DNA of 64,000 nucleotides from Basidiobolus ranarum (taxonomy: Eukaryota). The stretch lies in NCBI GenBank assembly GCA_040143965.1, contig JASJQH010006876.1, forward strand, positions 1 to 64,000. The letters run 5' to 3'. Under the pieces are notes generated by a model that did no database searches, was not told where the DNA came from, and was given only the letters and a program-made list of their open reading frames with translations. The translations under genes were made by a program, and so were the position numbers. Positions 19,893 to 46,133 of this stretch are shown piece after piece (the first letter of the stretch is position 1; every line of letters begins with the position of its first letter).

Positions 19893-20998
19893 ATGCACGC
19901 TACCAATATACTAGACATTAAGTTAGAAAATGATACATTAATTTTCAATGGGTCTCCATCAGACTCAGCCGGTGCTTTGTTAAGAGGCAAAGTTATATTG
20001 CGCTTAAAAGAGGCCACCAAGTTACGTTCACTCACTTTAAATCTCAAAGGAAGAGAAAAGACTACATGGACTGAATGTAAGTTCTTTGGCAATATATATT
20101 TATTCTTAAACAAATCCCTAACGACATATTTTCAGCATACGGAACCAAAGCTTTCGCCAATTACGCCAAAAGAAAATTGATTGATCACAGCTGGGTCTTA
20201 CTCGAACCTAAAAAGGAAGGTCACTCCTTTGCTGCTGGAGAGTATACCTACATATTCGAATATGCATTCCCTGGCTCTTTACCGGAAACTATTCATATCG
20301 ATAGCGGTAAAGTTGAATACAAGCTACAGGCATTCGCTGAAAGAAGTTTTCTTCAAAGAAACTTGACTAGCGAGAAGGAGATCAATATCAAAAGATATAC
20401 TAATAATAGCGAATGTAACGAATCAACCGATCTTTCCGATATTTGGGAAAATAAGGTTCGCTATGAAGTCCATGTACCGATGAAATGCTTTGGTCTTGGC
20501 GAATCAATTCCAATAAGCATCAATATTGCTTCTTTGATGGAGCAGGCTCACATTAAAAGAGTGGTGTGTTTTCTAAGAGAATCGATCACTAACCGTATCC
20601 CGGAGATGAACAAATTCAATGTTGATCATAACTGGTTGCGTCTTTGCTCAGAGAAATATGTCCCAACTACACACCTTCAAACGACACTTAATCTCCAAGT
20701 ACCCAATAATTCCAAATGTGTGCACATCGATTATCGTTCCGAATTGATTCGAATTCGTCACACGCTTCAAGTCAAAGTCGAAGTAGAGAAAGCTGGCACT
20801 ATTGACTACGTCATTTTTGATCTTCCAATTTACATTCTTCCAGCTGCTCATGACGAGTTTTTCCAAGACTTACCTTCGTATTATCCCCCGTGCTACGAGT
20901 ACACCGCAGTTAACGACAGTAACAATTGTCCTCCCCCTTACCCTGCTCGAGAGACCATATCATACCCTGTTAAATACAATGTTCAATGCTCTCGCTAA
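19893..20998 (+). CDS. Alpha-arrestin (ART/ARRDC-like adaptor)
   Basis: Arrestin-N pattern (LRGKVIL, LKGREKT, GEYTYIFEYAFPGSLPETI, GKVEYKL) and C-terminal PY motifs (LPSY, PPCY, PPPY). One intron at about 20077-20135. Confidence 0.88.
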
Positions 20999-21306: not shown

Positions 21307-24300
21307 CTAGTAGCCCGAGCCACTATCGTCTTCATCCTCCTCTTTGGTCTGGACTGGCTCAGATTTGGCTATGGTTTTCTCAGCTTGAAGAAGGCTTTCA
21401 TTGATGCTTTCAGATATACTGTTGAAGCTTTCACTAGCGGAATCTTCATCAGATGTGTACTTGCTAGTAATTGCTCGATTGAAATCCTTATTTTCAGGAT
21501 ACCAATATCCATTGTGGAAGTCATAGCCATCGTGCAAGTCCTTATTAGAAGTGTCACTATAGGAGGAGCCACTGTCGGCATAGGCGCTATCACTAATGTT
21601 ACCATATGCACCGCTTTCAGAATCGTATTGACCGTCTTGGTAAGCATCAGAGTCTGAATTGCTCCAGGATTTACGGAATGCCTTCTGGTTAAACTTTGAA
21701 GCTCCCTTAAAACCAGAGCGGTCAAGTGCATAGCCCTTGGAGTATACTCCCTTCTTAATCAAGCTTTCTATATTAATATCGGGGGATACTAAAGAACCAA
21801 CCAAAAATCCATTCAAATTCAGAGTTTCTTTAAGACTTATAATAGCATTGTCACATTGCTGCATAGTCTCTCTAATGGTTGATAGCTCCTCAAAGAATCT
21901 ATGCGAATCAGTAGCACCTAGTAAGCCAAGTCTTCTGATGGATTCGTTCAAAGTAGGGATAATGTTCAACAAGTAGTCGACTTTCTGACGCTGTTCTTCG
22001 TCTAAAGATAGTAGTTTTTCAGTGCTCTTCGTTTGAATGGTGGTGAGTTTTTCCAAGACTTGATCAAGATATCCTATGCGACGTTTCAAATCCACGAAAT
22101 CTCTTGCATGATTGGGGAAAATCAGTTCTGGTCTAGTAACAATTTTCTCTAGAACCTTGGTGATTTGGTTCAGCCTAGATTTGATTTCTCTGTTCTCTCT
22201 GGATTGCTGTCGAGAAGCGAGTTCGAATCGGTTGATTAGAGAATTGGCATCGTCACCAGTAATTCTCCCCAGGGCATGTCCAATTATGTCCAGTCGATTA
22301 TCCAGACGTTTGAATCCTTGGTTGTTTTGTTGAGAAAGTTGTGTAAATCCACGTTCAATTAAAGAGTTTTGCTCCAAGTTCAAACGTACTGTCAATTGAG
22401 CTAGCTCGTTGATTTGGTTGGAAATACGAGAGACTGCCTCTGCAATCCTGTTGTTATCAAGGGTTTGACGCTTAATGTGGGACAAGATAGTGTCTTGTTC
22501 ACGGACAAGTTTCACCATCAGGGAGCTCACTTGGTTAATGCGCTGGTCGAAATGAGCAGTGATTTCACGATCATTCTTATTTTCTTGTGACCGGAAATCA
22601 TTTATCTCGCGTCTGAGTAAGACTTGGTGTTGGTTGATGATTTTCGCAACTGTATTTCTCAATTCTCCTAAACGATCGTTTAACCCAGCTAACTCGGCAT
22701 GATCATGTTCTTTGGTGTAAACCAGAAGTTCTTGTTGCTGTGATACAAGTCTTGCTACAATACCGTTAAGATTTCCTAGAGCCCCACCCATGTTGTTGAT
22801 TGCTATGGATTGTTTTTCGACCAGGCCAGTTAATCGCATTAGGTTATGTTGCTGACTTATAAGCTGCTTTAGCGCATCTCCAAACAAATTCAGTTTTTGA
22901 TCCAATCTAGTGAATTGTTCGTTTTGTTCACTGCGATTCAGCTCAAACAGCTTTCTTTGCTCGCTTAGCAGGAATTCCACCACTTCTTCGATCTTATAAA
23001 TCTTGGAAGCTAGTGACTCTATCTCTTGGCTATGCTTATGTGAGTTCCTAGATTCCACTGCCAAGAGCTGATTTTGTTGGTGAATAAGCTGATTTACTAG
23101 TTTTGCGATTTCGGAGAGTCTGATATTCATGTTTTCTGATAGAGCGTGCCCTTGTCGATTCAATGTAGTGACACCTCCCTTGGTAAATTCGAATAGTCGT
23201 GCATGCTGCTCAATCAATCTCTTCGTAGAATCACTAAGTCTTTCTAACCTAACCTTGACTTGATGTACGTCTTGGGGTAAGCCTAGTAGAGTGGTCACCT
23301 TGGCATCAATTTGCTGAGCTTCCTTAACAAGGAATTGTACAGCATCATCCAGATGAACTAAATTGTTGTTCAGTCTTTCAACTCCATCAAGTGTGGCCTT
23401 TGATATTTCAGTATTTTCTCTTTCAATGGCGATCAGAGCCTTTTGTTCCTCAAACAAACGATCAACAACTTGTGTTAAACGAGTCAGTTTCTCATTAAGG
23501 AATCGAGTAGAATCTTGAATCTTTCCATCTAAGCGATTTCCTTGTTCTACTTCCAATGCAGCAAGGTTTTGTTGCTTTCGTAAAACAAGTTGAATACCTT
23601 TCTCCAAACCGGCCAGACGAGCGAGTACAGCATCAAATCGATCCCGAGAATATCCAGATTTATCAAGCTTTTGTACAATTGTGCCTAAAAGAGTACGCTG
23701 TTGACCTATCAACGAGTTAACTCTTTCACCAAGTTGTCCAACTCTAACATCAACACCATGAATGGCCCCTGATTGTTGACGCAAAATCGTAAGTAACTCT
23801 TCCCGGTTCATGAGGTCATTTTGCTTCTTCGCGATATATTTCGCTACAGTGGAGAGTTCGTCAAAGTGCTGAGTGAGCAGGTACAGTCTATTTAAGATAT
23901 TTTCGTTTGGTAATCCGCGGTGTTCGTGACTCAAGATTTCCTTTTGAATTTCAAACAGCTTGCCAATACCGGAGTTAATGATCTCAAACTGTCTGTTCAA
24001 TCCTACAATCTGTCCCAACAATTCTTTCGGTGCCTTTTCCACAATTGTTTCTGATAAAAGAGTGGTTTGTCTTGTTATCATTTGACGTACACTCTGGCTG
24101 AATTCAGCAAAGCGACCGATGATTTGTCTACTGATTTCAGTTCCTTGACCAAATGCTTTTTCCACTATTTGAGTGATATCGTTTTGTCGGTGTAGCAGCG
24201 CATTTAGTCGTTCGTTCACCCCTGAAAGGTTATGTTTAATGGGTTCCAAGTCGCTTAATCTCTCTGCAATCACTTTCAGAACTTGCTCATTCCGTAATAT

Positions 24301-27300
24301 CTCTCCTTGTTGTGCAAAGATTCGATGTACGGATTCGTTCAAAGTGCTGAGTTGTTGATTCAAGCCATTGACTCTTTCTTCGAAGTTGACATTGAGTCGT
24401 CCTTGATTTTCAAGAACTGCCTTTTGCTCCTCCTGAATGCGTTCAATGACTGCTCCCAAACCTGTAACTTGTCCTCCTACAGCCCGAATGGTTCGGTGGA
24501 GGTTTTTAGCTACCGCATTCAACATCTCTGGTCTCACTAAATCCTTTTGCTGGTCAAATAGCACCCGAAGAGTATTGCGAAGGCTGCTCAATGTTTCAAA
24601 GATTTTTCTATCATCAATTCGGTTCTCGTGCACAAACGTTTGGAATTGCTTGGTGTTCACAAGGGTTTGTTGGCTATCCAAAATGTGACTAACCAGTCCA
24701 CTCAACCGTGATAAACGGCCATCAATTCCTCGGAATTCTCCATAGAATTTCTCAAGGATTGGACCAACTTTATCGTTGTTTAGAATAGCTTGTTGAAGCT
24801 CTAAAATACGTCGAACAGATTCACTAAGGTTGTTGAATTTCCCAGATATAACCTCAACATTTCGTGCCAAATTTCCAGTAATTTGGTTATTTCTATTTTG
24901 GCTCTTGAGGAAGACTGCTTGCAATTCTCGAATTTCTTTAACGGATTCTCCTAATCCTTGGACTTGCTTATTCAATATCTCGACATCATTAACAATTCGT
25001 TTGGGAAATTGGTTGAGAAGTTGACTATTAGCGAGTAGTTGTTGCTGTTTGAATAGCTGATCAACCACTTTAGTAAGGTAACTGATATTCCCGCCAATCT
25101 TTTTCAAATTGATAATCTCGCCTTGGTGGATGCCGGAGCCTTGGTTTAGCAGTTGCTGTTGTTGGTTGATTAACTGAGTAATTTCCTTGCGAATTGTGTT
25201 GATATTTATACCTAAACCTTGTATCTGATTTGACTGGTGGTTCAACAGAGCTAACACGCGGTCATCGTGAATCAATTTGGCCTGGACACTTGAGATTTCC
25301 TGAAGAATATCTCCAAACTGACCAATACGGCCATTAAGAGCACCCAACCCTTGACGAATTGATTCAAATTCGCCATTTTGTTTTTCAACAATAATGTGTT
25401 GTTGTTGGCCAAGGTTGGCAACATTGTCAGTGAGGTGAATAATCTTTTCGGAAAGTTCTCGAATCGTATTGACCAAGGTCTTGGGTAGAGAGCCAAGAAT
25501 CTCGGGGAGATTGAGTGATTGCTGCCAGTGCAATATACTGGCAACTACACCTTGAAGTTGTTTGACTCTACCAAGAGTTTCGCCCAAACCATGCTCATCT
25601 CGTTCCTGGGTACTGAGCACTTTCTCAAGTAGTTTAGCTTGCTGTGAAAGAAATTCAGTGGTACGTGCAGCAAAGTTAGATAGGCGACTGTTGATATTCT
25701 GAATATAGCCTAGTTGTTGATCTAATGCAGCTTTGACCTCTTGATTCTGGGAGATAATAATCCTTTGCTCTTCATGGATTTGCTTGATCTCTTTTAGAAG
25801 TTGAATTACCCTTGTGGAGATTCCATTCACCTCGCCACGAATTTCATCAAGATCGCGTTTCTCCACGGAAGTCAACTCTAGGAGATATTTTTGCTGATCT
25901 AGCAGTTTGAAGATGGTTGGCCCGAATCTCTCCAGACGTGCGTTGATCTCATTTACTTGCGAGAGAATTTCCTTAGGTATTATCTTATAAGTATCTGAAT
26001 TCAAAATCACTTGCTGGATATTGACAATCGTCTCAGTCAAGTTCTTGAGTTCGCTTAATCTCTTTGCTAGCTCAGTATCTCTAGCTATGTCGCCATCGTT
26101 AGCTGTCTTAGTTTCACGGAGTAAAGCACCTTGAATTTCTACAATACGAACGATATCATTTTTGAATTGCGAGAGTCTGGATTTGATGAGTCGAATATCT
26201 CCAGTTTGTTCTTTCAAAATACTCATCACCTCGTCTCGTCGTAACAGCTGACTTTGTTCAGTAGCAATCTTCTTGATCCATTCAGTTATTTGAGAGAACT
26301 GTCTACGCAATTGAACGAGTTGACCTTCCACTTGTTTGTAGTTGCCGCCTTCTCTTAAGAATTTGACAATCTCGGTCTGCTCCTTTCGAACATTTTGAAT
26401 CACTACTCCGAGTTGAACCATACGATCGTTGAGGCTAGAAATTATCTTCGACACTTCTTCACCAACTTTAGCCGCTATTTCTGGCCCTAGAAGACTTCTT
26501 TGCGACTCGATTAGTTTCCTAATAACTTCGCGTAAAGTCATAAGTTCTTGTGATATTGCTCGATCCCGTTTCGTGTCGTTGGAGGATGCTTCTCCTAACT
26601 GTTTAATTATGAATCCTTGTTCGTTAACCATTTTGTCAAATTGGTTACCCAATTCACTAAGTTTTACACCGAGGTTTGTTATACGCTGACTTTGATCTCT
26701 TAGTAGAGCTGTGATTTCTCGAGTATTCAAAACTTTGGTCTGCTCAGCAAAGGTTTGCTTTATAAAATCGAACAGCCCTAATAAACGTTTGTTTATTTCA
26801 TCAACTTGCTCCTCCAAACGATGCTCCGTATTGTTGCTGTCGCGAGACAATTGGAAAAGGGCGTTTTGCTTCGTGGTAATCTGGCTCACGATTTCCACCA
26901 GCTGAGCGTATTTTTCATTCAACAGTTCTAACTTACGAAGAATTGGCTCTGATACCTTACCGGTTAATGACGCTGAGATTAGTTTCTCTTGCTGTACAAT
27001 TAACTGGCTAATCAAACTTTGAAGTCCGCTTAATCCTTGAAGAATTCTCTTCGTCTCTTTAGCGTCTAGCTTACTTTCTCCATCAATTCTCTTCAAAAGT
27101 TCATACTGAATTCGTACTAGATTTTCGATTTTTTTGTCGAGATTCTTTACTTCGTAGGTCAAACGGTCCGTCTTGCCCAAATTCTGCTTGAGAAGGTCAG
27201 AATTGTTCAGTAGAATGGCTTTTTGTTCGGCAGAGAGCTCTTTAATGTAGGATCCCAGTTGGCCCAACTTAGCATCCAAGTTATCAACCTTTTCGACAAT

Positions 27301-32556: not shown

Positions 32557-33851
32557 GGCAAATAATGGATTCTTCTAACGAAATTTGTAAAGTAGTGATC
32601 AAAATTAATTCCAGAATCAGTGAGAAATATGGAATGCAAAGTATAATATAAGATTGATTCTCGAAAGTCAAAAAAGTCAAAAATAGTTTCTATGTGTACG
32701 AATTGTGGAAGTAAGAAAGTTCCAATTCTTTGGTAAATAGAGAAAAAGTAGTGGTCCAAAGAAATTCCTACGTTGTAAGGTGGTTGATGGCTACTCATCA
32801 TCTATCCTCTTTTTATATCTTATGAACAAACTTTATTCACTACTTGTTCACCATGCATTGGGGTACCATTGCACGAAGGATTCTGAAACTCGAGCCTGAA
32901 TTTTTCTCTAACAGTGCTAAGTGTTTAGGGTTGAATTTGCTGTATTGGTAAGTACCATCACACCATCGTTGTTTCAAAAATATCATATTAAATTCATTGA
33001 TCTTGACATGAAGGGTCCTTGAATAAACGAAATCCACCAAATAATCCAAGTATGCCACTCGAGGCTCGGTTTCAAAGTTTCTCTTTCTTCAATAGCGTAT
33101 TTGGATGGGAATTTCTTTAGAGTGAGTGGTTGAGCTATGACTAGACTTTGGCGGTCTTGACTTCAGTATTAGCCACCAAACGCCACCTATCTAGTAGTAA
33201 TTCGTATGTATAGCTTTGCGCATGGCATGTTTGGATCTATCGTATGAAACATAGGTGATTGCCCGAGTTGAACTGAAAATATTCCAAAACAAACAATCAT
33301 TGCAGATTACAACCTGCCATGGTTTTTGCTTTGTTTTCACCCATTTATTCTTAAAAGATCTGCACCTCGTATTTCACTGTTTCAACGTTGCATGTGATAG
33401 AAAGTAAATTCGGATAACATTGTGCTTTAGCGATCCAACCAATTAACATCCATTTAAATGAATTAATTACATTGAATGAGTATGTGGACGCTGATGCGGA
33501 TCTTGTCAAGATACGAGGGGCCAAATGTAAAAATGCAAAATCGAAGACTGATGATTTTACGGAACTTTTTCAACTGATTTGTTCCACTCGAATGACTATA
33601 CTAATTACGTAGAAAACAATAATAGATGAAGGAAACTAACGGCGTACACTACAGCTACATGTTATTTTGTTTCATTGAATCATCGCTCTTGTGCGATAGA
33701 CGGTAGTTATATAAATTCGCACCGTACATCCTGATGTGATGATTATATTGAACTCTTTTTTGTACCCCCATTCCTGCTTATCCTTTAGATATCTTATATT
33801 ATTCGATAAAAACAACCCTTGAACAAATCACTTACAAAAATCAACAACAAA
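32557..33851. promoter_or_regulatory. Probable bidirectional promoter shared by the two giant genes
   Basis: A 1.3 kb divergent spacer with outward-facing TATA-like boxes: TATAAAA on the minus strand at 32811-32817 and TATATAAA on the plus strand at 33708-33715. Confidence 0.55.
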
Positions 33852-36800
33852 ATGATGTTTGAAAATTCCATCAGAATTCATGATGCTTCCCAGAAATCCA
33901 AGAATTTACGTCGTAGTTTATTCTTGATTTCGCAATTAGCGGTGGTACAAGCTATAAACCATCCTTCATATAGTCAATCAAGGAGTCAAAAAGAGAGTCA
34001 CACCTCTACCAATCCAGAGAAACCTTTTACAAATGGAGCAACCATATCCTCCAAAAAACCACTGGGTTTTCCTAATATCTCAAACAATCCATTGATGTCT
34101 CAATATCCTAGTCCATCAAATGTAAGCTATAGTGAACATCGAGGTAATGTATTGGTGAATGGGTATCCAGTCGAAGTTGCTCCTTCTGGTGCTTTTTACC
34201 ATGATGACGGATATGGGTTCGACCTTTTTGAGTCTGATATTCCTTCATATCTGGAATTCGGCGATTACCCTCTATCGGGGTACTTTAATACACCATCCTG
34301 GGGAATCTCTGGCAATCAGGCTGTACTCTTTCCAGATGGTCAATTGAGATTTTTGGCGCCTGCTTTCGATGACATAAATGACGGCTCATACTATCAAGAG
34401 ATCGATGTACCTGTTTATGTCGAACAAATTGAAGTCGACTCAATAGATAATAGAGAAGCGGAAGAGATTGCTGTGGTGAATAACGAGAATGACTACATTA
34501 ATTCCGTACAGTTAAACGAAGTATCATCAAAGCTAGAACAATCAGAGGAATTCCAATTATTAGATGCCAAACTTGATCAGCTCACACTGGCATTATCTCA
34601 AGTAATATCAGGATCTACTAAAGGTGAAAGTAATACCCCAGCAACAAACCCAAATGTTCATATCAATGGGCTTGTTGAAGGTATGGATGTGTTAAATCAC
34701 AAAGTAGAAGAGTTAGTGAAAGCAGTTGGAATTGTAACAGAACAAAATCAACTAATCGGTACTCAAACCTCAAAAGTATTAAAAACTTCCACAAAAACCT
34801 TATCCGAAGTCGATACTATAAACGAAAAGTTAACCACGATAAAGAAAGATCTTACTCTTATCTCAGAGAAAGAATCTCACATCGAACAACAGCAAACTAA
34901 CAATATCGTACGCTCCTCCAAAGATATCAATGAGATAAATGAACGAATCACCGATCTATTAAGAACAGTAGGAGGATTATCCAAAGGCTCTTATAACCAT
35001 CAACATGATTCTAAGGTTGCACACGATTCTAATGCCAGTCAGGAGTTGAAAGAAATTCGAGGAAATTTGAACCGAATGCAAAATTCCATAACTGCCATCT
35101 CTAGCGAAGTAACCTCATTCTTATCTAAAGTAGAGAAAACGTCGCTGCAAGATATCGAAGGAATAAATCAATTACGCAAGGAATTTAGTCAATTCAAAGT
35201 CTTTATGGATAAACGAATTGCTGAGAGTAATAATTTAGAGAAAGAAAATCATGCAGAAACCGTACAGATGCTTAACAAGGAGTATACTCTAATCGGGGAT
35301 CTTAGTAAACGGGTGGATGGATTATTTGCTAGTTTGAAAATTGTTCTGGAGCAACTCCAGAAACTTGAAAACAAGGATGCAGACTACACAAAAGCAATTA
35401 CAACGATCGAGGGCTTACTGCAACGACTGAGCCAAACTAGTGATACTTTGGATAGGTTAATTAAGAAGGAAATGAATCTGATCAGTAATCGCGATTATTC
35501 CAAACCTACTAGTGGAATTGATTCAAGAAGAGTTCTTTCCAGCTTAGAAGAACTTCGCAACGAAATGAAGAACCTAACAGCGCAGCAAATAGACTTGTTC
35601 CAAAAGTATAATTCCAGCACTAATAATGAAGGATACGAGAAGATAGTAAACCATTTGAATCAACTTCAGAAAACGGTGATTCAATTGGTCTCAGAGGGAG
35701 GAAAATATTTCAAAGTTCCCGATTCCGGAAACTACCCGAAAGAACTCATCCGTGACATCGAAAACATGAGTGAAAATATTATTAATCTCAACTCAATCGT
35801 TAAAGGACTTGTCAAGCAGCAACAGAAGTTGATTGAATCTTACGGGGAAAACAACAAAGGTGGTTGGAAAGAGTTCAATGTCAATTTTGAGAAACTTGGT
35901 CGAGTAATCAATATGCTCTCTACACAGAACAGTTGGATCAAGCAGCAAACAGATGTGATCTCTAAGATGGACTCTCATATTACGGAGATAGGCTCTAAGA
36001 TTAATCATCTTATCGAGGAACAATCCAGATTAGAAGTATATCCACATAAAGGCTCCAAGAGTGATCCAAATATTGCCTACAAACTAGATCAACTGCGCAA
36101 GACCGTGGAGCAGTTGGCACACGATCAACAGATTCTACTTGGGAAATATAGGGAAGGAAAAGCATCAGATGTTCTGACGAAGGATATTCAAAGTGTCAAC
36201 TATAAACTAGCCGATCTTAGTTCAGTGGTTACTAGACTTTTGCAAGAACAGAAGTCAATAGTGAATAAACTTGGCTCACAAAAAAACCGTCCCAGTGACG
36301 GGAAAGATGAATCTAAAGAGATCCATCTTCTGAGTGAGCAAATAGAACGACTCCGAGAGGTGGTTACCCTTATTGCTAAGCAACAAAAAACTCTCCTTCA
36401 GGGAAAGTCAATCACCGTAAATACCGACAACATCACCGTACTAGACTCCAGGTTGAATTCATTAGGCCAGAAGATGGATTATCTTATCAAACAACAACAA
36501 CTCATATCAGGAAAATATGGCAACTCTGAAGACACCAAAAATCAAAACTCAGAATACCGGAACGTTGAGACTATCCTCAATCAACTTCGACAGACAGTTA
36601 CCGAAGTGATTAAAGAGCAGACGGTATTGATTCGAGGATCAGGTGGCAAATTACCAAGCAAATTACCAGATGACCTCGAAAGAGTAATTGAAAATCTGGC
36701 AAAGCAATGCTCTCGAATCTACAATGTGGTTGATAAGATCGGCTATGAGCAAGAACAGATTTTGAAAAATGACAAAGGAGAAGTCAAAGATATCCAGGAA

Positions 36801-39800
36801 ATTAAGGATAAATTGACCAAGCTAAGTGACGTGCTTATATTTATTACCAAGCAGCAAAACCGTATTCTAGGTGGAGATTTCCATTTAAAAATCAAGGATT
36901 ATTCTGGCGATGTTGAAAAACTCGGAGAGCAGCTAGCAAGGCTAAAATCAACCATGAATGTTTTGGTCCAACAACAAAAAAGTCTTCTGAGTGACCGTGA
37001 CGATAATAAGGTTAATGAGCAGCTGAAACAGCTCTATACTGTGGTGGATCGACTTGTTCAAGATCAAGAGAAGTTGATTACTATAAAAATCAACGGCAAA
37101 GGCAATAGCGGTTTGGATCAAAATATTGTAAACATGAACGAGCGACTGGCAAAACTAAGTGTAGTAATCGACCGACTGGTCAATCAGCAAAATGAAATTC
37201 TGAAATACCTTGGAAGCGAGAGCAAGGAAGGCAATGTTAATACAAAGCTCGAATTGATCACATCCAAGCTTGGTCAATTGGGTGAAGTCGTGACACTGCT
37301 GAATAAGCAGCAAAACGTACTTTTGAACATTCCAAGATATTTTTCGCTCATCGAATCTCAATCGAAGGAAATCGGAAGACTGGGACAACAAGTGAGCCAG
37401 ATTCAAGAATCGATCAATGAGTTGGTTGCTTTAGAGAAAAGTCAAGGTTATAGGGATGATCAAGGAAAAGGCGGCAACTTTGCCAAAGTTCATATCAAAC
37501 AATTGACTGATCTCTTCCGATCAGTACAACGCTTAGCTAATGGCCAAGATCAGCTCTTCTCGTACGTAAAATCCAATATCTCGGAAAAACGACTGAATGA
37601 TATCGAAAACGTGACCCAAAAACTATATTTGTTAAATCAGGCAATCCAGCACGTTGTCAACGAAGAAAGAACCTTACTGAACAGTATACATTCTCAAGGC
37701 AAAAATATAGAGAAAAGTATTCAACAGATCGATATGAAAATTGACAAACTCAGTATTGTTGTTGAGACAATGAACAAACGTCAAGAGAATCTGTTTGCCA
37801 CTGTCAATGCGCTTTGGAAGTCCCAGGATAGTAACTTCAAACTTGTGAATCAAAAATTGGCTGTCTTGGGCTCAGATGTCACTAGGTTGATTAGCCAACA
37901 GCAGAAGCTATTCAATAGCAAAGGATACTCGAATGACATCTCCGTCAATGGGAGGTTATCTGAATTAGAGAAATCAATTACTCAGTTGATTCAAGAACAA
38001 CGAAGGTTGATTCTCGTCAAATCTAGTCTTGATATCTCACCGGATTTGAAACGAGAAATTTCTGCAATAGACAACCGTTTAAATCAACTGAGTCAATTCA
38101 TCCGCGAGCTTGTGTCAAAGCAAGATCGGTTCTTACAGTATGCTGAAAAGGGGGAAATTGGAACCTCTGGCGACAAAGGAGATGTCAAGAACTACAATGA
38201 TCAATTCAAGCAACTCTTTATAATGGTGAGCAAGTTGACTCAGAATCAGATTTCACTCATTACTAGAGAGGATGTAGCAAAGCTATTTGATAGACAAAAC
38301 AAGGGAATTCAGAATCTTTCGCTTGACATTGGCCAGCTCAGTAATAGGATTGATAAAGTCTTAAAGCAACAGGAGGTTTTGAATGGAAAGAATTACCTTA
38401 AGAATGGTAATACCCATGACACTCGTCTCTTCAAGATGTTAGTTGATATTAGCAAGAACGCACGACAACTTCTGGAACAACAAAACATGCTTGCTCGGAA
38501 CGTTCGTGACAATTCCTTACCCAAAGATGTAGCCAAAGAAGTTTCAAGCTTACGGAAGGAGCTAACAAATCTTACCAGGGTCATTAATGAAATTTACTCA
38601 AATCAAGAAAAAATCATTCAGCTCAAATCCAGTAGTACCAAAGATTACTCGGAACAAATTTATTCTCAAGTGGAGAAAATCACTACGGAACTAGGCGGCG
38701 TCAGCCAAGGGATCGGTCGTATTTCAACTGTGCAGTTGGAGATCCTTAAGCGACTCGGCGTTCTCAGTGACCAACAGCTCCAAAATTTCAGAAATGTAGA
38801 TTCTAAAGTCTCAACTTTAGGGAAACGAGTAGATCAATTGGTTACTGGGCAGAAGGTTTTGATAGGCAAAGAGGATAATAACACAGATAAGCTTGACAAA
38901 GTTGTCAAAGAACTGGGAGACCTACGAGACGTTGTTTACAAACTCGTCAGTCAACAAACTACAATTCTGGAAGCCAAGTGGGGAGGCTCGTACAAACAAA
39001 AAGTTCCATTTGACGTGTCTGTTATTAATACAAAAATTGCCAAAGTAAGCGATACTGTGGATCAACTCCTAGTTCAACAACGCAGAATTATGGACCGCAA
39101 AGTGGATGGCGGCTTGACGAAGGAAGTCAACGAAAGTCTCGAGACACTAACAGTCTCAATCAAACAGATTGGTGGCTATGTTAAAAATTTGTATACAGAG
39201 CAAACACAAATTCTGCAAAACCATACTGAGTTGTTGAAACAAAATCTGAACAAAACTGACAAGGTTGATCACCAATTAATTGGCTTATCTCAAAAGGTAG
39301 ACGAAATTATACGCATCCAAGCTATTCTGTTGAGACGTGTTCAGAAAACCGACAAGGGAACTGAAACTAGAACTGATGATGACGCTATCATTCAGAAACT
39401 TAGTAGTCTTCAAGGTCTTGTAAATCAAATTGTCCTTCAACAGGAGAAACTATTCAAAGCTAAGTTAAACGGGCGAGTTCCCAAAGAAGTTCTCGAGGAA
39501 TTAAGAAAACTAGACTCACGCTTTGGGGAACTAATAGGCTCAGTGAATAGCTTCTCTAACAAGCAGCGAATCGTGATTTCCAAGGATTCTGATAGCAAAC
39601 TATCAGAGAGCTTGGTGACTGACATCAATAACCTCTCGGAAAAACTCGATAGCATATCTAGCTTCGTTAAGGAAACCATGAATATTCAGTCAAGAGTATT
39701 TAACAATAATGAAGTGATTCAATTGCTCAAAAACCAATCAGGTCAGATCAACAAGTTAGATGCCAAGTTGAACGAACTGAATTCAAGATTTTCAAGTCTT

Positions 39801-42800
39801 GTGGAACAACAGGCAATTATCATCAAGAGAATCGACTATAGCAAAGGCTCAAAAGGCTCGAACGACAATATGACGCCAATATACGAGGATCTACAAGGAT
39901 TACGCAGTGTTGTCAAACAAATTGTTGAATATCAAAAGAGTCTTGGTAGCCCTAACGTTAATTCGCGTTTACCCAAAGAGGCTTTGATCCTAATGGAGAA
40001 ACTGAATGAGCGGTTCTTGGCCTTGGATAGTCAAATTGTTGGTTTTTCTGAAGGTCAGAGTAATTTATTGAAGCTTGAGAAACAGGACGAACGCCACTTG
40101 GGTAGCATTGAGGGATATATCTCGGGAATAGTCAAAGAATTTAGACCCTTAAAAGAAGCAGTAAATCAGATTCTTTCTGAGCAATCAACGCTTTTACGCC
40201 GTAACGATGTCATCAAAATCCTCCAACAACAGGCTGGCCATATTGATCAAATAAACAATCGACTAGGCAGCCTTGGTGCTCAAATGAACCAACTGGTTAA
40301 CATCCAAAAAGAACTTCTGCGTGGCAATGGCTCCAAGCAACAGACCAACAATGCAGGGATTGATAGTTTGATCAATCGATTTAGCGAATTAAGCGAAACG
40401 GTCAACAACATTGTTGATAGGCAGAACGAGCTAACCAAGCCACAGATCATGAATCAAATACCTCAAAGTGTGGTAGAAGAGATAAAAACGGTCACACAAC
40501 AAATGTCTACGCTGAATGAGCAAGTCACTACACTTAGTGAACAGCAACAAGCAATAATCCAAAGTCTAGCCGGCAAGAAGGGGTCACCATCTGAACTCGT
40601 AGTTAAAACATACAACCGTGATCTTCAGATTTTAAGTGAACAAATATTTAAATTGGGTAAAATGATTAATGGGATCTCCAGTCGCCAAGATAAAGTCGCC
40701 AACAATGATCGTGTCCTAGATGTGATCAAGAAGCAAGGTGCACAGATTCAATCGCTGGGCATAGGTATGAATAACCTCCGAAAAGAGCTTGGTGTATTGA
40801 TCAATCGTCAGCAAGGCCTTCTTCAAAGAACATATGGCAATACTCAACAAAATCGCCAAGGTACACAAGCTATCCTAGAACAACTTCAGAAACTAGATAG
40901 CAGAGTCGATGGTTTGTTTGAACAACAAAAAGTGCTTGTCAACAAAGAGATTTACGCTGCTATACCGAAAGAGATCACGTCACAAATCGATCAAATAAGC
41001 TCTCAGCTTGGGGAACTTCGCCAAGTTGTTACAGAGGTTTCTAGAGAGCAGACAACCTTCATTGAACACGGAAATAAGAACAAAGATGATGGAAACGCCA
41101 GTAATATTGATGGAATACTCAAACTGAACCAGCGCTTTAATCAATTGACAAAGCTAGTAATCAGGATCGCTGAAGGTCAGAACCGCATTACTTCAAACGA
41201 GAAAGTAGTCAAAATACTGGAGCAACATTCTCGAGCAATTCAAAGAATTGACAACAGACTTACCGAAGTTGGCAGCATGGTCCAGAGAATCTTAGAGAAT
41301 CAGTTTAAGCTTATTCAATCGCCTGACTACCAAAATCACGCCAATAATAAGGGTGTCAACCTACAACCCATAGTTTTGAACTTACAAGATCTTCGAGAAG
41401 AGGTCAGATATTTGATTGAACAACAGAGGAAACTGAATCGTCCATCGGTTGGGAATTCTCTTCCTCAAGCCCTAGTAGGAAAAGTGAACGAAATCAACTT
41501 GAACCTCAATGGCTTGAATAGGCATATCCAAAGCTTGTTTGAAGAACAATCTGAACTGATCAAAGCATCCAACAATAGACAAGGAGCAAATTACAAAGAT
41601 TCAATTGACAAGATCAACCGCAGCTTAAATGAGTTTGGAAGAGTGATACGTGCTCTTGTCGGTCAACAAACACAAATTCTTAAGAATGAAGAGGTTCTAA
41701 AAGTGATCGCTAGCGAACTTGGTGATCTCAAAGAAGTGAAATCGACCGTCAGAAACTTTGGCCATCAAATTCGGAATCTTGTTGAACAACAAAGGATAAT
41801 CTTGAACAACATTTCTCAACTAGGCAAGTATAAGAGCGCAGATTCGAGCCGAGACCTGCTTGGTAAATTAGCTTTACTAAGTCGGACTGTTAATGAATTG
41901 GTGGAAAAACAGACGATTTTATTGAGGCGTGAGGTTGTTGGAACTGTGCCCAAGGAGATAATGGAAGAAATTACAATTCTGAACAAGAAGTTCAATTTCG
42001 TTACTAGCAGCCTAGAATCGATAGCAGAATTACAAAAACGTCTACTTGACCGTAGAAACGATGGCTCAGATAATCACGAAGAAGCCAGCCCGGAAGTGAT
42101 CGGATACTTGAATGACTTGAGACAAAAATTTGGCAAACTTTATCAAGAAGTGACTTCAATCTCTAGTTATCAACAGGAATTGATGAGTCGCAAGGAGCTT
42201 TTGAGTATTCTGAAGCGTCATTCTGTAGATATCAATATCGTTGGACGTAAAGTTGAGGCTGTTGATGAGAAGATTCAAGTACTTATCAACCAACAGAGAG
42301 AGCTATATAACCTGATTGAGAAAAAAGGGACAAGGGACCAAGTAGGAGGGAAAAACTATTCAATCGTAATTGAACGCCTCCAACAGCTTGAAAAATCAAT
42401 TGTTCTACTCTCTGGCGAACAGAGAAGGTTGCAAGGAATTGAGAGAAATGGCACGAAGCAAGTTCTGGAAACAGTCAATAGCTCTACACAATATTTGGAT
42501 GGTAAAATGGGCAGACTTTCTACTTTAATTGATCGTGTCCGGAACGAACAACAGGAAATACTTCAAGCTGTAAAGAATAACAATATAATATCTAAGGAAG
42601 TCTTGAGTAGAGTTGACAAAGTCAATGACGAGATCAAGAATCTCGAGGATGTAGTGAAGCAATTGGCACAAGAGCAGCATGAAGTCAATGTCAAAGTAAC
42701 TAAACTTCTAGGCCTACCCCAAGATATGCAAGAAGTCAAACAGCGCCTGGTAACTCTGAACAATCTCACCAACAAGCTTATAAATCAGCAGGTTCAGCTC

Positions 42801-44636
42801 TATGAGGTCACAGTACAAGGGTCAAAAGGAAATGGAGGTTCAGGACCAAAAGGTTATGATAACGATCTTCGCAATCGCCTCTCAGAGCTGTTCCAGCTTA
42901 TGCAACAACTTACTGTTCAGCAAAATGGCCTAATGAAGGTGGAGAATAGAAACTCACAGAGTCATACTCAAGAAATTTCTTCTTTGGCTTCTAAAGTTTA
43001 CAAGGTTGAGCAAACCGTAACTCATTTGTTGGAAGAGCAGCAATCTCTGCTTAAAAAAGACAACATGAATAATCTCGGTGGCTTTAATAATCTAGACAAA
43101 AAGGTTAACTTATTGAACGAAGCTGTAAAGCAACTTGTCAATCAACAACAGAAGATTATGAAATTGGCGGGTTTGGGGCGACTAGTACAACAGCAATCGC
43201 AGGATATTCGAGGTGTAAAAAATAACTTGACGAACCTGACAGATGTAGTCAATCAACTAGTAAATCAACAGAAAGACCTTCTCATCCGTACGAAGTATGA
43301 AAAAGAATACGTTACTAACAACGAGTTGAATACGAAATTTGGTGAATTGAGAGACACTGTCCTCAATATTGTCAAACAACAACGCATTATAGTCGAGAAG
43401 AATATCAAAGACCGCGAGCGCAATGGTTATAAAAAAGGAAGTGAGCCTGGTGAAACTGTCTCCTATAACTTGGAGAATCGGGTTGAGCAAGTGACTGATT
43501 TGATGAAACAACTGGTACTCCAACAAAAAGAAACAATTTTACGAATTTCTAGAAAAGAAAGCATCAACTATGATGATATAGTTGGTAAAATGAATACAAA
43601 GATTCTGCAATTGAACGAGTTAGCAAAGCAGCTATTCGCCGAACAGACCTCTCTGATTCAACGAGGCTTTGATTCTTTATCGAAGCAACAGTATACCGGC
43701 TTTCAAAAGATTGACGGTAGATTAAATGACATTGGTAGTGCTTTGAAGAACCTTTCAAACTATGATAATGGTGCTTTGGATCGCAGAATTCAAGCACTAT
43801 CTCAGCAACAATCAAGGGACACCAGTAAATTGAATTCTCGATTAAATCAAATCAGTAAAATGCTGGAGCGCATTGCTACTCGCCCTAATACTGGAGATAA
43901 TACAGGCTTGAATGAAATCCGGAACAAGTTGAATGGATTAGAGAGCGCCATGACTCGAATACTTGGAAAACTTGACAGGGGTGGCAACGCAAACCTTTCA
44001 CAAGAACAGTTTGAAGAACTGAGACGCGTCAGTCGGCAACTACCCAACCTTAACCAGTCCGTGGAGAAATTAGCTTTGGTTGAAGAAGTAGGAAACCCAA
44101 TATATATTCAAGAATTAACCAACATGGACCAATCCTTGAGTGAATATGGAAGGGCTATAATTGATATCGATGGGTCCATAGGAGGTACTTATTCTAATCC
44201 TGTGGGCTACGATTCTCAGGATATGGGCCTGGATATCATTGACATAGATACTGGTGATCTCTACAGTGGTGACAGATTCGCTTGGGATGGCGCAAATGTA
44301 GATGGATATAGGTTTGTTGATAAGGGCTTCGGTCCCCTCCGGCCCGGTCCTATTATTTCTCGTCGCCGAATTGAGTTCCGCAGCAATAGGAATAGAAGAG
44401 GCAGTAAACTTGGTAGCAAAAACAAAACTTATAGAAAAACTACCAGGCCCTTGGAAAGACTTGGCAAAAGGCCATTAGTAATCTCTAAACGACCTAAAGT
44501 ATTAGAAGGTTCCATTACTTCGTTCAGTCCTGCAAGTGTGAAAAGATCCAACACTCGCTATCAAGGATATGAATATCGTCAAGGTTTTTGGTATCCTAAG
44601 AATGAACAATTTGAAAAGATCATGCAAGTGAAATAG
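33852..44636 (+). CDS. Giant (about 3594 aa) intronless segmented coiled-coil repeat protein B, paralog of protein A; function unknown
   Basis: An uninterrupted ORF whose first ATG is at 33852 (the track starts at a TTG at 33819). It shares LFLISQLA, LFPDxQLRFL, SSKDIxEIN.R.TDLLR, KVTxLLGLPQD and GxWYPxN motifs with protein A. Confidence 0.9.
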   Translation: MMFENSIRIHDASQKSKNLRRSLFLISQLAVVQAINHPSYSQSRSQKESHTSTNPEKPFTNGATISSKKPLGFPNISNNPLMSQYPSPSNVSYSEHRGNVLVNGYPVEVAPSGAFYHDDGYGFDLFESDIPSYLEFGDYPLSGYFNTPSWGISGNQAVLFPDGQLRFLAPAFDDINDGSYYQEIDVPVYVEQIEVDSIDNREAEEIAVVNNENDYINSVQLNEVSSKLEQSEEFQLLDAKLDQLTLALSQVISGSTKGESNTPATNPNVHINGLVEGMDVLNHKVEELVKAVGIVTEQNQLIGTQTSKVLKTSTKTLSEVDTINEKLTTIKKDLTLISEKESHIEQQQTNNIVRSSKDINEINERITDLLRTVGGLSKGSYNHQHDSKVAHDSNASQELKEIRGNLNRMQNSITAISSEVTSFLSKVEKTSLQDIEGINQLRKEFSQFKVFMDKRIAESNNLEKENHAETVQMLNKEYTLIGDLSKRVDGLFASLKIVLEQLQKLENKDADYTKAITTIEGLLQRLSQTSDTLDRLIKKEMNLISNRDYSKPTSGIDSRRVLSSLEELRNEMKNLTAQQIDLFQKYNSSTNNEGYEKIVNHLNQLQKTVIQLVSEGGKYFKVPDSGNYPKELIRDIENMSENIINLNSIVKGLVKQQQKLIESYGENNKGGWKEFNVNFEKLGRVINMLSTQNSWIKQQTDVISKMDSHITEIGSKINHLIEEQSRLEVYPHKGSKSDPNIAYKLDQLRKTVEQLAHDQQILLGKYREGKASDVLTKDIQSVNYKLADLSSVVTRLLQEQKSIVNKLGSQKNRPSDGKDESKEIHLLSEQIERLREVVTLIAKQQKTLLQGKSITVNTDNITVLDSRLNSLGQKMDYLIKQQQLISGKYGNSEDTKNQNSEYRNVETILNQLRQTVTEVIKEQTVLIRGSGGKLPSKLPDDLERVIENLAKQCSRIYNVVDKIGYEQEQILKNDKGEVKDIQEIKDKLTKLSDVLIFITKQQNRILGGDFHLKIKDYSGDVEKLGEQLARLKSTMNVLVQQQKSLLSDRDDNKVNEQLKQLYTVVDRLVQDQEKLITIKINGKGNSGLDQNIVNMNERLAKLSVVIDRLVNQQNEILKYLGSESKEGNVNTKLELITSKLGQLGEVVTLLNKQQNVLLNIPRYFSLIESQSKEIGRLGQQVSQIQESINELVALEKSQGYRDDQGKGGNFAKVHIKQLTDLFRSVQRLANGQDQLFSYVKSNISEKRLNDIENVTQKLYLLNQAIQHVVNEERTLLNSIHSQGKNIEKSIQQIDMKIDKLSIVVETMNKRQENLFATVNALWKSQDSNFKLVNQKLAVLGSDVTRLISQQQKLFNSKGYSNDISVNGRLSELEKSITQLIQEQRRLILVKSSLDISPDLKREISAIDNRLNQLSQFIRELVSKQDRFLQYAEKGEIGTSGDKGDVKNYNDQFKQLFIMVSKLTQNQISLITREDVAKLFDRQNKGIQNLSLDIGQLSNRIDKVLKQQEVLNGKNYLKNGNTHDTRLFKMLVDISKNARQLLEQQNMLARNVRDNSLPKDVAKEVSSLRKELTNLTRVINEIYSNQEKIIQLKSSSTKDYSEQIYSQVEKITTELGGVSQGIGRISTVQLEILKRLGVLSDQQLQNFRNVDSKVSTLGKRVDQLVTGQKVLIGKEDNNTDKLDKVVKELGDLRDVVYKLVSQQTTILEAKWGGSYKQKVPFDVSVINTKIAKVSDTVDQLLVQQRRIMDRKVDGGLTKEVNESLETLTVSIKQIGGYVKNLYTEQTQILQNHTELLKQNLNKTDKVDHQLIGLSQKVDEIIRIQAILLRRVQKTDKGTETRTDDDAIIQKLSSLQGLVNQIVLQQEKLFKAKLNGRVPKEVLEELRKLDSRFGELIGSVNSFSNKQRIVISKDSDSKLSESLVTDINNLSEKLDSISSFVKETMNIQSRVFNNNEVIQLLKNQSGQINKLDAKLNELNSRFSSLVEQQAIIIKRIDYSKGSKGSNDNMTPIYEDLQGLRSVVKQIVEYQKSLGSPNVNSRLPKEALILMEKLNERFLALDSQIVGFSEGQSNLLKLEKQDERHLGSIEGYISGIVKEFRPLKEAVNQILSEQSTLLRRNDVIKILQQQAGHIDQINNRLGSLGAQMNQLVNIQKELLRGNGSKQQTNNAGIDSLINRFSELSETVNNIVDRQNELTKPQIMNQIPQSVVEEIKTVTQQMSTLNEQVTTLSEQQQAIIQSLAGKKGSPSELVVKTYNRDLQILSEQIFKLGKMINGISSRQDKVANNDRVLDVIKKQGAQIQSLGIGMNNLRKELGVLINRQQGLLQRTYGNTQQNRQGTQAILEQLQKLDSRVDGLFEQQKVLVNKEIYAAIPKEITSQIDQISSQLGELRQVVTEVSREQTTFIEHGNKNKDDGNASNIDGILKLNQRFNQLTKLVIRIAEGQNRITSNEKVVKILEQHSRAIQRIDNRLTEVGSMVQRILENQFKLIQSPDYQNHANNKGVNLQPIVLNLQDLREEVRYLIEQQRKLNRPSVGNSLPQALVGKVNEINLNLNGLNRHIQSLFEEQSELIKASNNRQGANYKDSIDKINRSLNEFGRVIRALVGQQTQILKNEEVLKVIASELGDLKEVKSTVRNFGHQIRNLVEQQRIILNNISQLGKYKSADSSRDLLGKLALLSRTVNELVEKQTILLRREVVGTVPKEIMEEITILNKKFNFVTSSLESIAELQKRLLDRRNDGSDNHEEASPEVIGYLNDLRQKFGKLYQEVTSISSYQQELMSRKELLSILKRHSVDINIVGRKVEAVDEKIQVLINQQRELYNLIEKKGTRDQVGGKNYSIVIERLQQLEKSIVLLSGEQRRLQGIERNGTKQVLETVNSSTQYLDGKMGRLSTLIDRVRNEQQEILQAVKNNNIISKEVLSRVDKVNDEIKNLEDVVKQLAQEQHEVNVKVTKLLGLPQDMQEVKQRLVTLNNLTNKLINQQVQLYEVTVQGSKGNGGSGPKGYDNDLRNRLSELFQLMQQLTVQQNGLMKVENRNSQSHTQEISSLASKVYKVEQTVTHLLEEQQSLLKKDNMNNLGGFNNLDKKVNLLNEAVKQLVNQQQKIMKLAGLGRLVQQQSQDIRGVKNNLTNLTDVVNQLVNQQKDLLIRTKYEKEYVTNNELNTKFGELRDTVLNIVKQQRIIVEKNIKDRERNGYKKGSEPGETVSYNLENRVEQVTDLMKQLVLQQKETILRISRKESINYDDIVGKMNTKILQLNELAKQLFAEQTSLIQRGFDSLSKQQYTGFQKIDGRLNDIGSALKNLSNYDNGALDRRIQALSQQQSRDTSKLNSRLNQISKMLERIATRPNTGDNTGLNEIRNKLNGLESAMTRILGKLDRGGNANLSQEQFEELRRVSRQLPNLNQSVEKLALVEEVGNPIYIQELTNMDQSLSEYGRAIIDIDGSIGGTYSNPVGYDSQDMGLDIIDIDTGDLYSGDRFAWDGANVDGYRFVDKGFGPLRPGPIISRRRIEFRSNRNRRGSKLGSKNKTYRKTTRPLERLGKRPLVISKRPKVLEGSITSFSPASVKRSNTRYQGYEYRQGFWYPKNEQFEKIMQVK

Positions 44637-45171: not shown

Positions 45172-46133
45172 ATGTTGGGATTCACCTTAGGACGTACGTT
45201 GAAGCGGGGCATTAGACTCCAGAGATACAAGCCTCTTGGACAATTCGCCTCAATTGGATTCGTTCGCTACACACATATCAACACCTCTTACAACAATGAC
45301 TTGGTCACGATAGAGTCAATTCCGGAACAAAATACTGCCATTATTCATCTTCATCGGGCTCCAGCAAATGCTTTTAATGATGAAATGGTACGAACCGTTA
45401 CTGATGTATTTACTCAAATTGAGAAGGATAAATCAGTAAGAACAGTGATCTTTGCTTCGAAAATCCCTAAGTTCTTTTCTGCTGGTGTTGACTTGGAAGA
45501 TTTTCATCGATCTGGTGAACTGTGGATGGAGTTTTGGAGAGATTTGCGAACAATGTTTATTACTATCCATGGATCAAGGCTGAATACTATTGCTGCTGTC
45601 AACGGATTTGCTGTAGGTCTTGGATGTGCTCTGACATTAGGTACTAGGATGCTTATTTCTCACTTTTCTTATTCTAATTACTTTATCACTTGTTAGCTTG
45701 TCAAGATCGCTATATGTTATCAGGCAAAGGTGCAATTGGCATCAACCCTGTCAATATTGGTATCCCAGTCCCTGTATGGTTAGTCCAACGTTATGTTGAG
45801 GTGCTCGGCTATAGAACAAGTGAAAAGATGCTAACTGCCGGTGTTTCTTTGAAAGCCACTGAAGCCAAAAAGATCGGTTTGGTAGATGAAATTTTTGATG
45901 ATCATGATCAATTACTAGAGGCTTGTAAGAAGCTTGCCAGAGAAAAACATAAGATAAACGAAACCGCTCAAGTCGAAACGGCTAGACTTTTGAAGGTACC
46001 GTTTATTAAAACGTTTTATTCGGAAGAAGCCGAAGACATGGAAAGGATGGCTGGTTTCATTGAGCGTCCTGAAATGAGACAAATCATTAAAGGAATGCAA
46101 GCACAAATAGAAGCAAAAAAGATCAAATCCTAA
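45172..46133 (+). CDS. Crotonase-family enoyl-CoA delta-isomerase, probably mitochondrial
   Basis: HRAPANAF, FFSAGVDL, IAAVNGFAVGLGCAL and EAKKIGLVDE, with an Arg-rich N-terminal presequence. One intron at about 45641-45696. Confidence 0.88.

Follow-up and report, generated by a model that had tools for sequence, protein, structure and literature searches.

A divergent pair of giant genes in Basidiobolus ranarum represents an undescribed, genus-restricted family with predicted helical-bundle repeats

The first 64,000 nucleotides of Basidiobolus ranarum contig JASJQH010006876.1 (assembly GCA_040143965.1; this whole stretch is referred to here as the window) carry two giant genes, designated A and B, that lie head to head and encode colinear, heavily diverged paralogs. 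A and B found an undescribed family which, as far as the searched collections reach, is confined to the genus Basidiobolus, and most of the length of each protein is a regular array of 40-residue helical units, grouped in fours into a super-repeat that is predicted to fold as a helical bundle. Proteins of both types, A and B, have been retained in parallel in two Basidiobolus species. The reading that we favour, tentatively and at a little short of an even chance, is that the two genes encode one A-type and one B-type member of a family of ~400-kDa proteins peculiar to Basidiobolus, and that these proteins are secreted and serve as two subunits of one structure; secretion, assembly of A with B, and a mechanical role of the two are proposed from indirect features.

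The gene pair and its relatives

The two open reading frames (ORFs), of 11.2 and 10.8 kb, are uninterrupted (Table 1), and the third-longest ATG-initiated ORF within the window encodes only 417 residues. Judged by the frequency of stop codons, open frames of 11 kb would be far beyond chance expectation. The frame of gene B is also open from an in-frame upstream TTG at position 33819, which would give a product of 3605 residues. Alignment of A with B by BLASTP was colinear, with 27% identity over 3468 aligned columns and 8% gaps. Both proteins are almost devoid of Cys (two of 3749 residues in A and one of 3605 in B) and low in Met (0.9 and 1.2%, respectively), and the base composition of the gene pair equals that of its flanks. 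A and B are 99-100% identical to the B. ranarum proteins K7432_000010 and K7432_000011, which are encoded on one 92,976-bp contig and are labelled hypothetical in the deposited records. In the deposited models, a short in-frame stretch is spliced out of each gene (Table 1). Both annotated introns encode the core of the repeat unit described below ('...V..l..(Q/R)Q..ll'), and the B. meristosporus homologue has kept the corresponding residues; consequently, A and B are read here as intronless. The annotated introns are probably false, and their removal would correct the two deposited gene models.

Relatives of the pair were found within the genus. With A as the query, a word-indexed search scored 2188 candidates and returned five proteins at E ≤ 0.001, each of them from Basidiobolus. 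A HMMER profile of the C-terminal 700 residues, run exhaustively against 1,835,955,588 representative sequences, recovered seven proteins at E ≤ 0.001, six of them from Basidiobolus. The seventh, the metagenomic protein P0011 (E 2e-5), was rejected as a relative and regarded as a chance match; it covered only 49 profile positions and has the look of a repeat protein of the phage tape-measure type. When a profile of the repeat was compared with longer proteins, just a fragment of the family and the bacterial chemoreceptor P0012 (E 5e-6) were returned, the latter being regarded as a generic four-helix-bundle match. The head (260 residues) matched none of 472 candidates among proteins of 143-455 residues at E ≤ 0.01, and A residues 1-300, comprising the signal-like segment, the head and the first unit, found nothing under E 0.05 among PDB sequences. 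No Pfam family reached its cut-off for whole A, whole B or any of 30 eight-unit segments of the rods; weak matches (AraA_N, Baculo_PEP_C, DUF948, and others) were dismissed as helical noise. Syntaxin (PF00804) was matched by five of the 30 segments with a best E of 1.3e-4, the first segment scoring 12.7 bits against a cut-off of 26.7. Full-text literature searches, including searches with six locus tags or accessions, located no mention of A, B or their relatives. Bacterial gene transfer has reportedly occurred with other Basidiobolus genes; for this pair, horizontal transfer from bacteria was considered and rejected, as the profile searches found no bacterial relative and the composition does not depart from that of the flanks.

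Full-length relatives at 54-62% identity occur in B. meristosporus, where the A-type is represented by ORX95758.1 and ORY04169.1 and the B-type by ORY04168.1. ORY04168.1 and ORY04169.1 have consecutive accessions and lie on one 204,214-bp scaffold; from these accessions, the two are apparently neighbouring genes. A second A-type protein of B. ranarum, P0005, is 65% identical to A, and fragments of a second B-type, P0010 and P0009, are 62% identical to B. All three are on short contigs (12.8, 5.7, and 6.0 kb for P0005, P0009, and P0010, respectively) that hold fragments only, and the second B. ranarum pair seems to lie where the genome is poorly assembled. In a tree built from 1064 gap-free columns, A' grouped with Bm 334011 (support 1.0) and, in parallel, B' grouped with Bm 297118 (support 0.97), which suggests that the A/B pair was duplicated as a pair.

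That the pair is non-functional, as an annotation artefact, a decayed repeat or the remnant of a mobile element, is most improbable, and nothing beyond the label of hypothetical in the deposited records was found to speak for it. It is contradicted by the length of the two frames relative to the next ATG-initiated ORF, by full-length relatives in a second species, by the position-specific conservation of 75 of 78 units described below, and by the lack of tandem repetition in the DNA of the two genes save for one 18-nucleotide doublet.

A sequence-only reading of the window had described two intact, intronless ORFs of about 11 kb, transcribed divergently from a short spacer and encoding colinear paralogs of head-rod-tail layout with almost no Cys, likely signal peptides and no named family, and had argued for long retention of both. 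These points were borne out: by the coordinates (Table 1) and the BLASTP alignment; by the repeat-encoding nature of the annotated introns; by the limits of the repeats, which occupy residues ~260-3510 of A and ~240-3420 of B; by the Cys counts; as far as likeness goes, by N-termini with signal-peptide-like sequence features; by the Pfam searches and the restriction of relatives to Basidiobolus; and by the A-type and B-type proteins with consecutive accessions in B. meristosporus together with the parallel duplications, which make the argument for long retention stronger than the sequence of the window alone allowed.

Anatomy and predicted fold of the rod

Repeat units were located with a hidden Markov model built iteratively from the protein's own units, which matched A 83 times and B 80 times; merging of close anchors left 82 and 79 units, respectively. 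Units are spaced at 39.8 ± 2.8 residues in A and 40.5 ± 3.7 in B, and the hydrophobic residues of both rods are periodic at 3.5 residues with a second period near 39-41 residues. Each unit comprises a core of ~29 residues, forming a heptad helix, followed by a variable linker of ~11 residues. Positions 4, 7, 11, 14, 18, 21, and 28 of the unit are hydrophobic, in the a/d spacing of heptads, and positions 22 and 29 are largely so. Position 25, an 'a' position, is occupied by Gln in 68 of the 82 units of A and 63 of the 79 of B.

Similarity between units is highest at separations of 4, 8, and 12, revealing a super-repeat of four units (~162 residues) in ~20 copies. The four-unit phase is kept in 47 of 60 central units of A and 50 of 60 of B, and its regularity is lowest towards the two rod ends. 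The linkers are specific to their class: a 'PKE'-type linker precedes class 1 units; the linker between classes 2 and 3 is conserved and poor in Pro and Gly ('R(D/N)EV..L..Q'); and after classes 1 and 3 come variable loops rich in Gly and Asn.

Of the 78 colinear A/B unit pairs, 75 are in register, and these are 34% identical, compared with 18.7% for other A-B pairs and 18.9% for pairs of units within A. These values indicate that the array was complete before A and B split and that it was then kept position by position. The only large difference in length between the two rods amounts to exactly four units, an insertion or deletion as long as one super-repeat (Table 1). The two regions best conserved between A and B are the first units, where 45 of 92 positions are identical in A residues 301-400, and the last, where 45 and 40 of 100 positions are identical over A residues 3101-3300. 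The sole tandem repeat at the DNA level in either gene is the 18-nucleotide doublet, at 21505-21540 in the tail of A; its product is the doubled hexapeptide DLHDGY/DFHNGY, which immediately precedes the conserved WYP motif there. The lack of others implies that the array is old.

The fold of the rod was modelled with AlphaFold2 on two super-repeats (A residues 1828-2152), using an alignment of 30 in-phase segments of A and B. The model (mean predicted local distance difference test [pLDDT] 71.1, predicted template modelling score 0.50) has eight long helices; in the AlphaFold2 predictions, the chain is split into helices 27-43 residues long, which fold back and pack against each other. Units 43-46, of classes 3-0-1-2, constitute the one complete bundle, an antiparallel up-down-up-down arrangement of four helices predicted at pLDDT of about 70-80. 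The first three helices of the model are without their class 3 partner, and its residues 1-124 align to three-helix bundles. A second model, of the C-terminal 700 residues and based on four homologues, was used for secondary structure only; it contained helices of 27-38 residues, one merged helix of 66 residues, and breaks of 2-10 residues.

When model residues 127-295 were compared with known structures by an independent aligner, the closest were Sw-5b (7x8u_A; Z 11.6, root-mean-square deviation 3.0, 120 residues aligned) and the Chlamydia protein IncA (6e6a_B; Z 11.2, deviation 4.2, 160 of 161 residues aligned). IncA and the coiled-coil domains of NLR proteins (7x8u, 4m70) are thus the best structural matches to one super-repeat. 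With identities of 10-13%, they have an arrangement in common with it and are not evidence of kinship or function. As to bundles of the SNARE/IncA kind, defined by a SNARE motif that Pfam recognizes and by a membrane anchor, the sub-threshold Syntaxin matches and the IncA alignment point one way, and the lack of a transmembrane-strength segment in A and B the other. As modelled, the match is to an ordinary antiparallel four-helix bundle and is silent on kinship. Among PDB sequences, the repeat profile matched best to designed single-chain antiparallel coiled-coil (sc-apCC) bundles (8qae, E 1.4e-8; 8qad, E 1e-7), which have helices of ~30 residues, clean heptads and short loops, a likeness of pattern and not of descent; chemoreceptor hairpins and the syntaxin Habc domain came next. 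A search of the ESM Atlas with A residues 1-2000 gave a best score of 0.77, under the level of a lead.

Taken together, these data suggest, with moderate confidence, that ~20 four-helix bundles follow one another along the rod. Several results count against this part of the proposal. The bundle was predicted at pLDDT 71, the alignment used for it was shallow and consisted of repeats from the protein itself, and the model of the C-terminal 700 residues had a mean pLDDT of only 46. With Foldseek, nothing in the PDB matched the two-super-repeat model at E ≤ 0.001, the best hit being the IncA four-helix bundle at E 0.04, and the Z scores of the four-helix-bundle matches, 10.5-11.6, are all under the value of ~13 advised for helical bundles. 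If the chain of bundles is correct, its geometry would have consequences for length. The chain enters and leaves a four-helix bundle on one side, which would keep successive bundles from simply being stacked straight with collinear junction helices, and even ~20 bundles of ~5 nm placed end to end would extend to roughly 100 nm.

The sequence-only reading had instead envisaged a continuous coiled-coil rod of up to several hundred nanometres. In its strongest form, A and B would make up a parallel, in-register two-chain coiled coil, the 40-residue units being a mere modulation. Such a fibre would account for the strong 3.5-residue periodicity throughout both rods and for the register of the unit pairs, as a parallel dimer would layer the conserved Gln residues, and the junction between classes 2 and 3 is indeed predicted to be almost helical, with a break of two residues. 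However, the spacing of units is divisible by seven in only 12 of 81 intervals in A and seven of 78 in B (range, 29-59 residues). Heptad phase is thus lost at the passage between units, whereas a continuous two-stranded coiled coil would hold it over hundreds of residues with no more than occasional stutters. In units 12-71, Pro or Gly occurs in 40 of the 60 linkers of A and in 43 of the 60 of B, the linkers are specific to their class within the super-repeat, the helices of the AlphaFold2 model fold back on one another, and the four units found in A alone would throw a straight heterodimer out of register. The continuous fibre is thus very unlikely, and any rod would be bead-like and several-fold shorter if the super-repeats fold into four-helix bundles as modelled. 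Nor do A and B resemble the clustered silk fibroins with which they had been compared: hymenopteran fibroins are Ala-rich proteins of ~30-45 kDa encoded by a cluster of four paralogs, whereas A and B have masses of 425 and 408 kDa and contain only 4.2 and 2.7% Ala, respectively.

Termini, location and the case for two subunits

Each protein begins with a short segment that resembles a signal peptide. In all four A-type proteins and in the B of the window, a basic stretch is followed by an uncharged hydrophobic run (ALFLISQLALSNTILG in A), with small residues at plausible -3/-1 positions; this geometry was recognized in five of the six proteins having an N-terminus. The top-ranked hydrophobic 11-mer of the whole protein falls within the first 45 residues in four of five proteins examined, and the N-terminal one is ranked second in the fifth. 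The block KNxRxxLFLISQLA is nearly identical in A and B despite the overall identity of 27%. The best 19-residue hydropathy values are 0.85-1.45, and hence no segment has transmembrane strength. The heads have the motif VLFPD(N/G)QLRFL in common, and the tails end in (D/N/Q)GY(D/E)(F/Y)..G(F/Y)WYP.N..F. Tails of the A-type are acidic and rich in Tyr, Ser, and Gly, with net charges of -13, -10, and -8; those of the B-type have net charges of +16, +16, and +1. Sequons (N-x-S/T) are fewer than in local shuffles (fraction ≤0.05) in six of eight family members; A itself has 16 compared with 30.1 expected, or 10 compared with 18.8 when the shuffle preserved the repeat columns.

The signal-like N-terminus, the few Cys and Met residues, the lack of any cytoskeletal or nuclear domain in the Pfam searches, the Tyr-rich ends and the depletion of sequons favour a secretory or extracytoplasmic location of A and B, which we place at slightly better than an even chance. 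A number of observations pull the other way. The 19-residue Kyte-Doolittle mean of the N-terminal segment is only 0.85-1.04 in the four proteins where it ranks among the top four such windows, it has no such rank in P0005 or P0006, its hydrophobic region includes Ser and Gln, and the call is heuristic. P0008, the deposited model of the B. meristosporus B-type, has no hydrophobic N-terminal segment, which may be a problem of the gene model. Sequons are not depleted in the B of the window (33, with 36.4 expected) or in P0009 (four, with 7.1 expected). The tails of the B-type are Arg-rich, that of B. meristosporus with Gly-Arg repeats, as is more usual for proteins that bind RNA or reside in the nucleus; the tail of B' is not basic (+1). 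Finally, A and B contain 14 and 13 Lys-Arg pairs, respectively, and such pairs could be cut by Kex2-type proteases of the Golgi.

Several of these observations would be accommodated by an intracellular scaffold, a spectrin-, talin- or nesprin-like chain of beads that is membrane-anchored or nucleoskeletal, in which the N-terminal segment would tether the protein to a membrane or organelle instead of being cleaved as a signal, and the basic tail of B would bind nucleic acid or acidic partners. We regard this as unlikely, though the most substantial of the alternatives considered. Tandem helical bundles are typical of intracellular scaffolds, and the Spectrin repeat (PF00435) was matched below threshold at E ≤ 1 by 13 of the 30 eight-unit segments (best E 2.8e-4), a result treated here as weak; the whole proteins gave no Spectrin match at E ≤ 1. 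The members of the spectrin superfamily (spectrin, dystrophin, plakins, and nesprins) are also giant proteins of tandem antiparallel helical-bundle repeats with heptads, in which each repeat has diverged on its own while their number stays constant, and the paralogous alpha and beta chains of spectrin assemble side by side. However, the spectrin repeat has ~106 residues and three helices compared with ~162 residues and four helices in Basidiobolus, the Basidiobolus pair has a core Gln conserved in every helix and a signal-like N-terminus, and it is without CH, PH, EF-hand or KASH domains. The talin rod and vinculin/alpha-catenin offer another parallel, being composed of four-helix (in talin, also five-helix) bundles with helices of ~30 residues that can unfold under force. 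No talin, vinculin or catenin family of Pfam was matched by A or B at E ≤ 1, A and B have neither a FERM head nor an actin- or vinculin-binding motif, and their ~20 modules are of near-equal length and derive from one 40-residue unit. More generally, no actin-binding, FERM, PH, KASH or other cytoskeletal domain was detected with Pfam, and the spacing of the units departs from the continuous heptads of a myosin tail, intermediate filament or golgin. Added to this are the lack of a transmembrane-strength segment, the signal-peptide geometry of five of six N-termini, the near absence of Cys, and the depletion of sequons in most members. Secretion thus remains the location that we prefer.

If A and B are extracellular, their closest analogue would be Ebh of Staphylococcus aureus, a signal-bearing, Cys-poor giant rod of helical-bundle modules at the cell surface. 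Ebh differs in being bacterial and in having three-helix modules with repeats of ~126 residues, and the profile searches revealed no homology, bacterial matches being limited to chance helical ones.

The arrangement of the two genes bears on whether A and B act together. They are divergently oriented across a short spacer, which presumably contains the promoters of both (Table 1). This is the organization of the collagen IV genes COL4A1/A2, divergent paralogs whose products are chains of one assembly, and the comparison with collagen IV made in the sequence-only reading stands as far as the arrangement is concerned; it does not extend to the proteins, as A and B have neither Gly-X-Y repeats nor an NC1 domain. 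The 12-mer ATCTTATATTAT occurs once upstream of each gene and, with up to one mismatch allowed, nowhere else in the window. It may be a common promoter or leader element of A and B; as at least two matches of this type were obtained in 32 of 100 shuffles, the pair of 12-mers is a hint only.

It is also conceivable that A and B are independent paralogs, each acting on its own in a similar role, whether as homomers or at different stages or places, with the head-to-head arrangement being a relic of an inverted tandem duplication. An identity of 27% leaves room for separate functions, the heads and tails differ strongly in composition, and no result obtained here shows A-B binding or co-expression; a complex prediction for A residues 3050-3480 with B residues 2923-3360 scored 0.00 in two uncontrolled runs, from which nothing is concluded. 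We nevertheless consider independence doubtful. Both types are kept in both species, one pair of A-type and B-type genes is apparently adjacent in B. meristosporus, the types have been duplicated in parallel, and their register is conserved unit by unit. Further, the tails are oppositely charged in both adjacent pairs (-13/+16 and -8/+16), and the same 12-mer precedes both genes. Set against this is that the adjacency in B. meristosporus is read from consecutive accession numbers.

Several further ORFs flank the pair. An ORF with an arrestin C-terminal domain (20480-20998, +) is convergent with gene A and ends 309 bp from its stop codon. On the other side of the pair, two enoyl-CoA hydratase ORFs (45172-45696 and 45714-46133, both +) match consecutive profile positions (4-110 and 118-245) and look like one gene with a short intron, unlike the intronless 11-kb pair. 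A helix-loop-helix transcription factor (HLH, E 6e-17) is encoded at 13020-13757 (+), within the 2 kb of the window that are richest in guanine and cytosine (12001-14000; fraction 0.438). An ORF with PAS domains and a partial GATA zinc finger (58199-59452, +) looks like a white-collar-type light-sensing transcription factor. The ORFs for RGS (5498-6508, +), protein kinase (47654-48307, -), DEDDh exonuclease (50962-51603, +) and EBP/EXPERA (52027-52623, -) proteins are ordinary eukaryotic genes with no evident tie to the pair.

Table 1. Features of the A/B gene pair in window coordinates (aa, amino acids; nt, nucleotides; CDS, coding sequence; pI, isoelectric point).
Feature	Position	Strand	Description
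Gene A	21307..32556	-	Uninterrupted CDS, 3749 aa from ATG; 425 kDa, pI 7.4; K7432_000010
A tail	21307..22020	-	Last helices, then Tyr/Ser/Gly/Asp-rich acidic low-complexity sequence; charge -13; motif GYDFHNGYWYPEN
A rod	22021..31785	-	82 units of ~40 aa, ~20 four-unit super-repeats
Annotated intron of A	24034..24090	-	57 nt (19 codons), in frame, spliced out in deposited model; encodes conserved repeat core
A units 50-53	25369..25851	-	Four A-only units, 161 aa; one super-repeat length; no B counterpart
A units 40-47	26101..27075	-	Residues 1828-2152, modelled; units 43-46 predicted as four-helix bundle (AlphaFold2)
A head	31786..32445	-	Non-repeat; motif VLFPDNQLRFLG
A N-terminal segment	32446..32556	-	Residues 1-37, signal-peptide-like: basic n-region and uncharged hydrophobic stretch; most hydrophobic 11-mer of the protein at residues 19-29
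Spacer	32557..33851	.	Divergent intergenic, 1295 bp between ATGs; presumed promoters of both genes
12-mer, A orientation	32643..32654	-	ATCTTATATTAT, 87-98 nt upstream of A ATG
12-mer, B orientation	33791..33802	+	ATCTTATATTAT, 50-61 nt upstream of B ATG
Gene B	33852..44636	+	Uninterrupted CDS, 3594 aa from ATG; 408 kDa, pI 9.1; K7432_000011
B N-terminal segment	33852..33953	+	Residues 1-34 (from ATG), signal-peptide-like
B head	33954..34529	+	Pro- and aromatic-rich; motif VLFPDGQLRFLA
B rod	34530..44108	+	79 units of ~40 aa, same four-unit phase
Annotated intron of B	43341..43391	+	51 nt (17 codons), in frame, spliced out in deposited model; encodes conserved repeat core
B tail	44109..44636	+	Arg/Lys-rich; net charge +16; motif GYEYRQGFWYPKN

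A proposed mode of action and its implications

On the preferred reading, A and B would each consist of a signal-like segment, a head of ~200 residues, a rod of ~80 units and a low-complexity tail. The two would be co-regulated, as the arrangement of the genes, ATCTTATATTAT, the parallel retention of both types and the complementary tails suggest. Each protein would be translocated into the endoplasmic reticulum and fold there module by module into ~20 four-helix bundles, with successive bundles joined by a short kink like beads on a string. The conserved Gln, buried near the end of each helix, may set the register of the helices and discourage mispairing among 80 similar ones. A and B would be held together through the conserved ends of the rods and through their Tyr-rich tails of opposite charge, and these same sites may also fix the complex to wall polymers or complexes to each other. 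The chain of bundles would thereby provide a long, flexible and possibly force-extensible tether or matrix element that acts outside the cytoplasm, in the wall, at the spore surface or in a secreted matrix.

Candidate users of such an element would be genus-specific structures, such as capilliconidia, which in Basidiobolus are adhesive-tipped. An adhesive-covered beak is described for a related genus of the same family (PMC13370150). The boldest form of the proposal is that A and B represent a new kind of fungal extracellular structure, a secreted, Cys-free, spectrin-like two-subunit chain that is cross-linked or anchored through its Tyr-rich ends; as a whole we think this improbable. If true, the pair would supply an extensible tether or glue, for example in the adhesive beak of capilliconidia or in an elastic wall during conidial discharge.

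At ~425 and ~408 kDa, A and B would be among the largest proteins that a fungus could make, and at least one apparently adjacent A/B pair has been kept intact in two species of Basidiobolus. Their unusually regular array is a clean natural model for how long helical repeats avoid misregistered folding, and the two proteins are candidates for a new protein material. Little is understood of the molecular biology of Basidiobolus, which is both an opportunistic pathogen and a gut symbiont. If A and B are extracellular, they would bear on that biology as wall, matrix or adhesive proteins of a class new to fungi.

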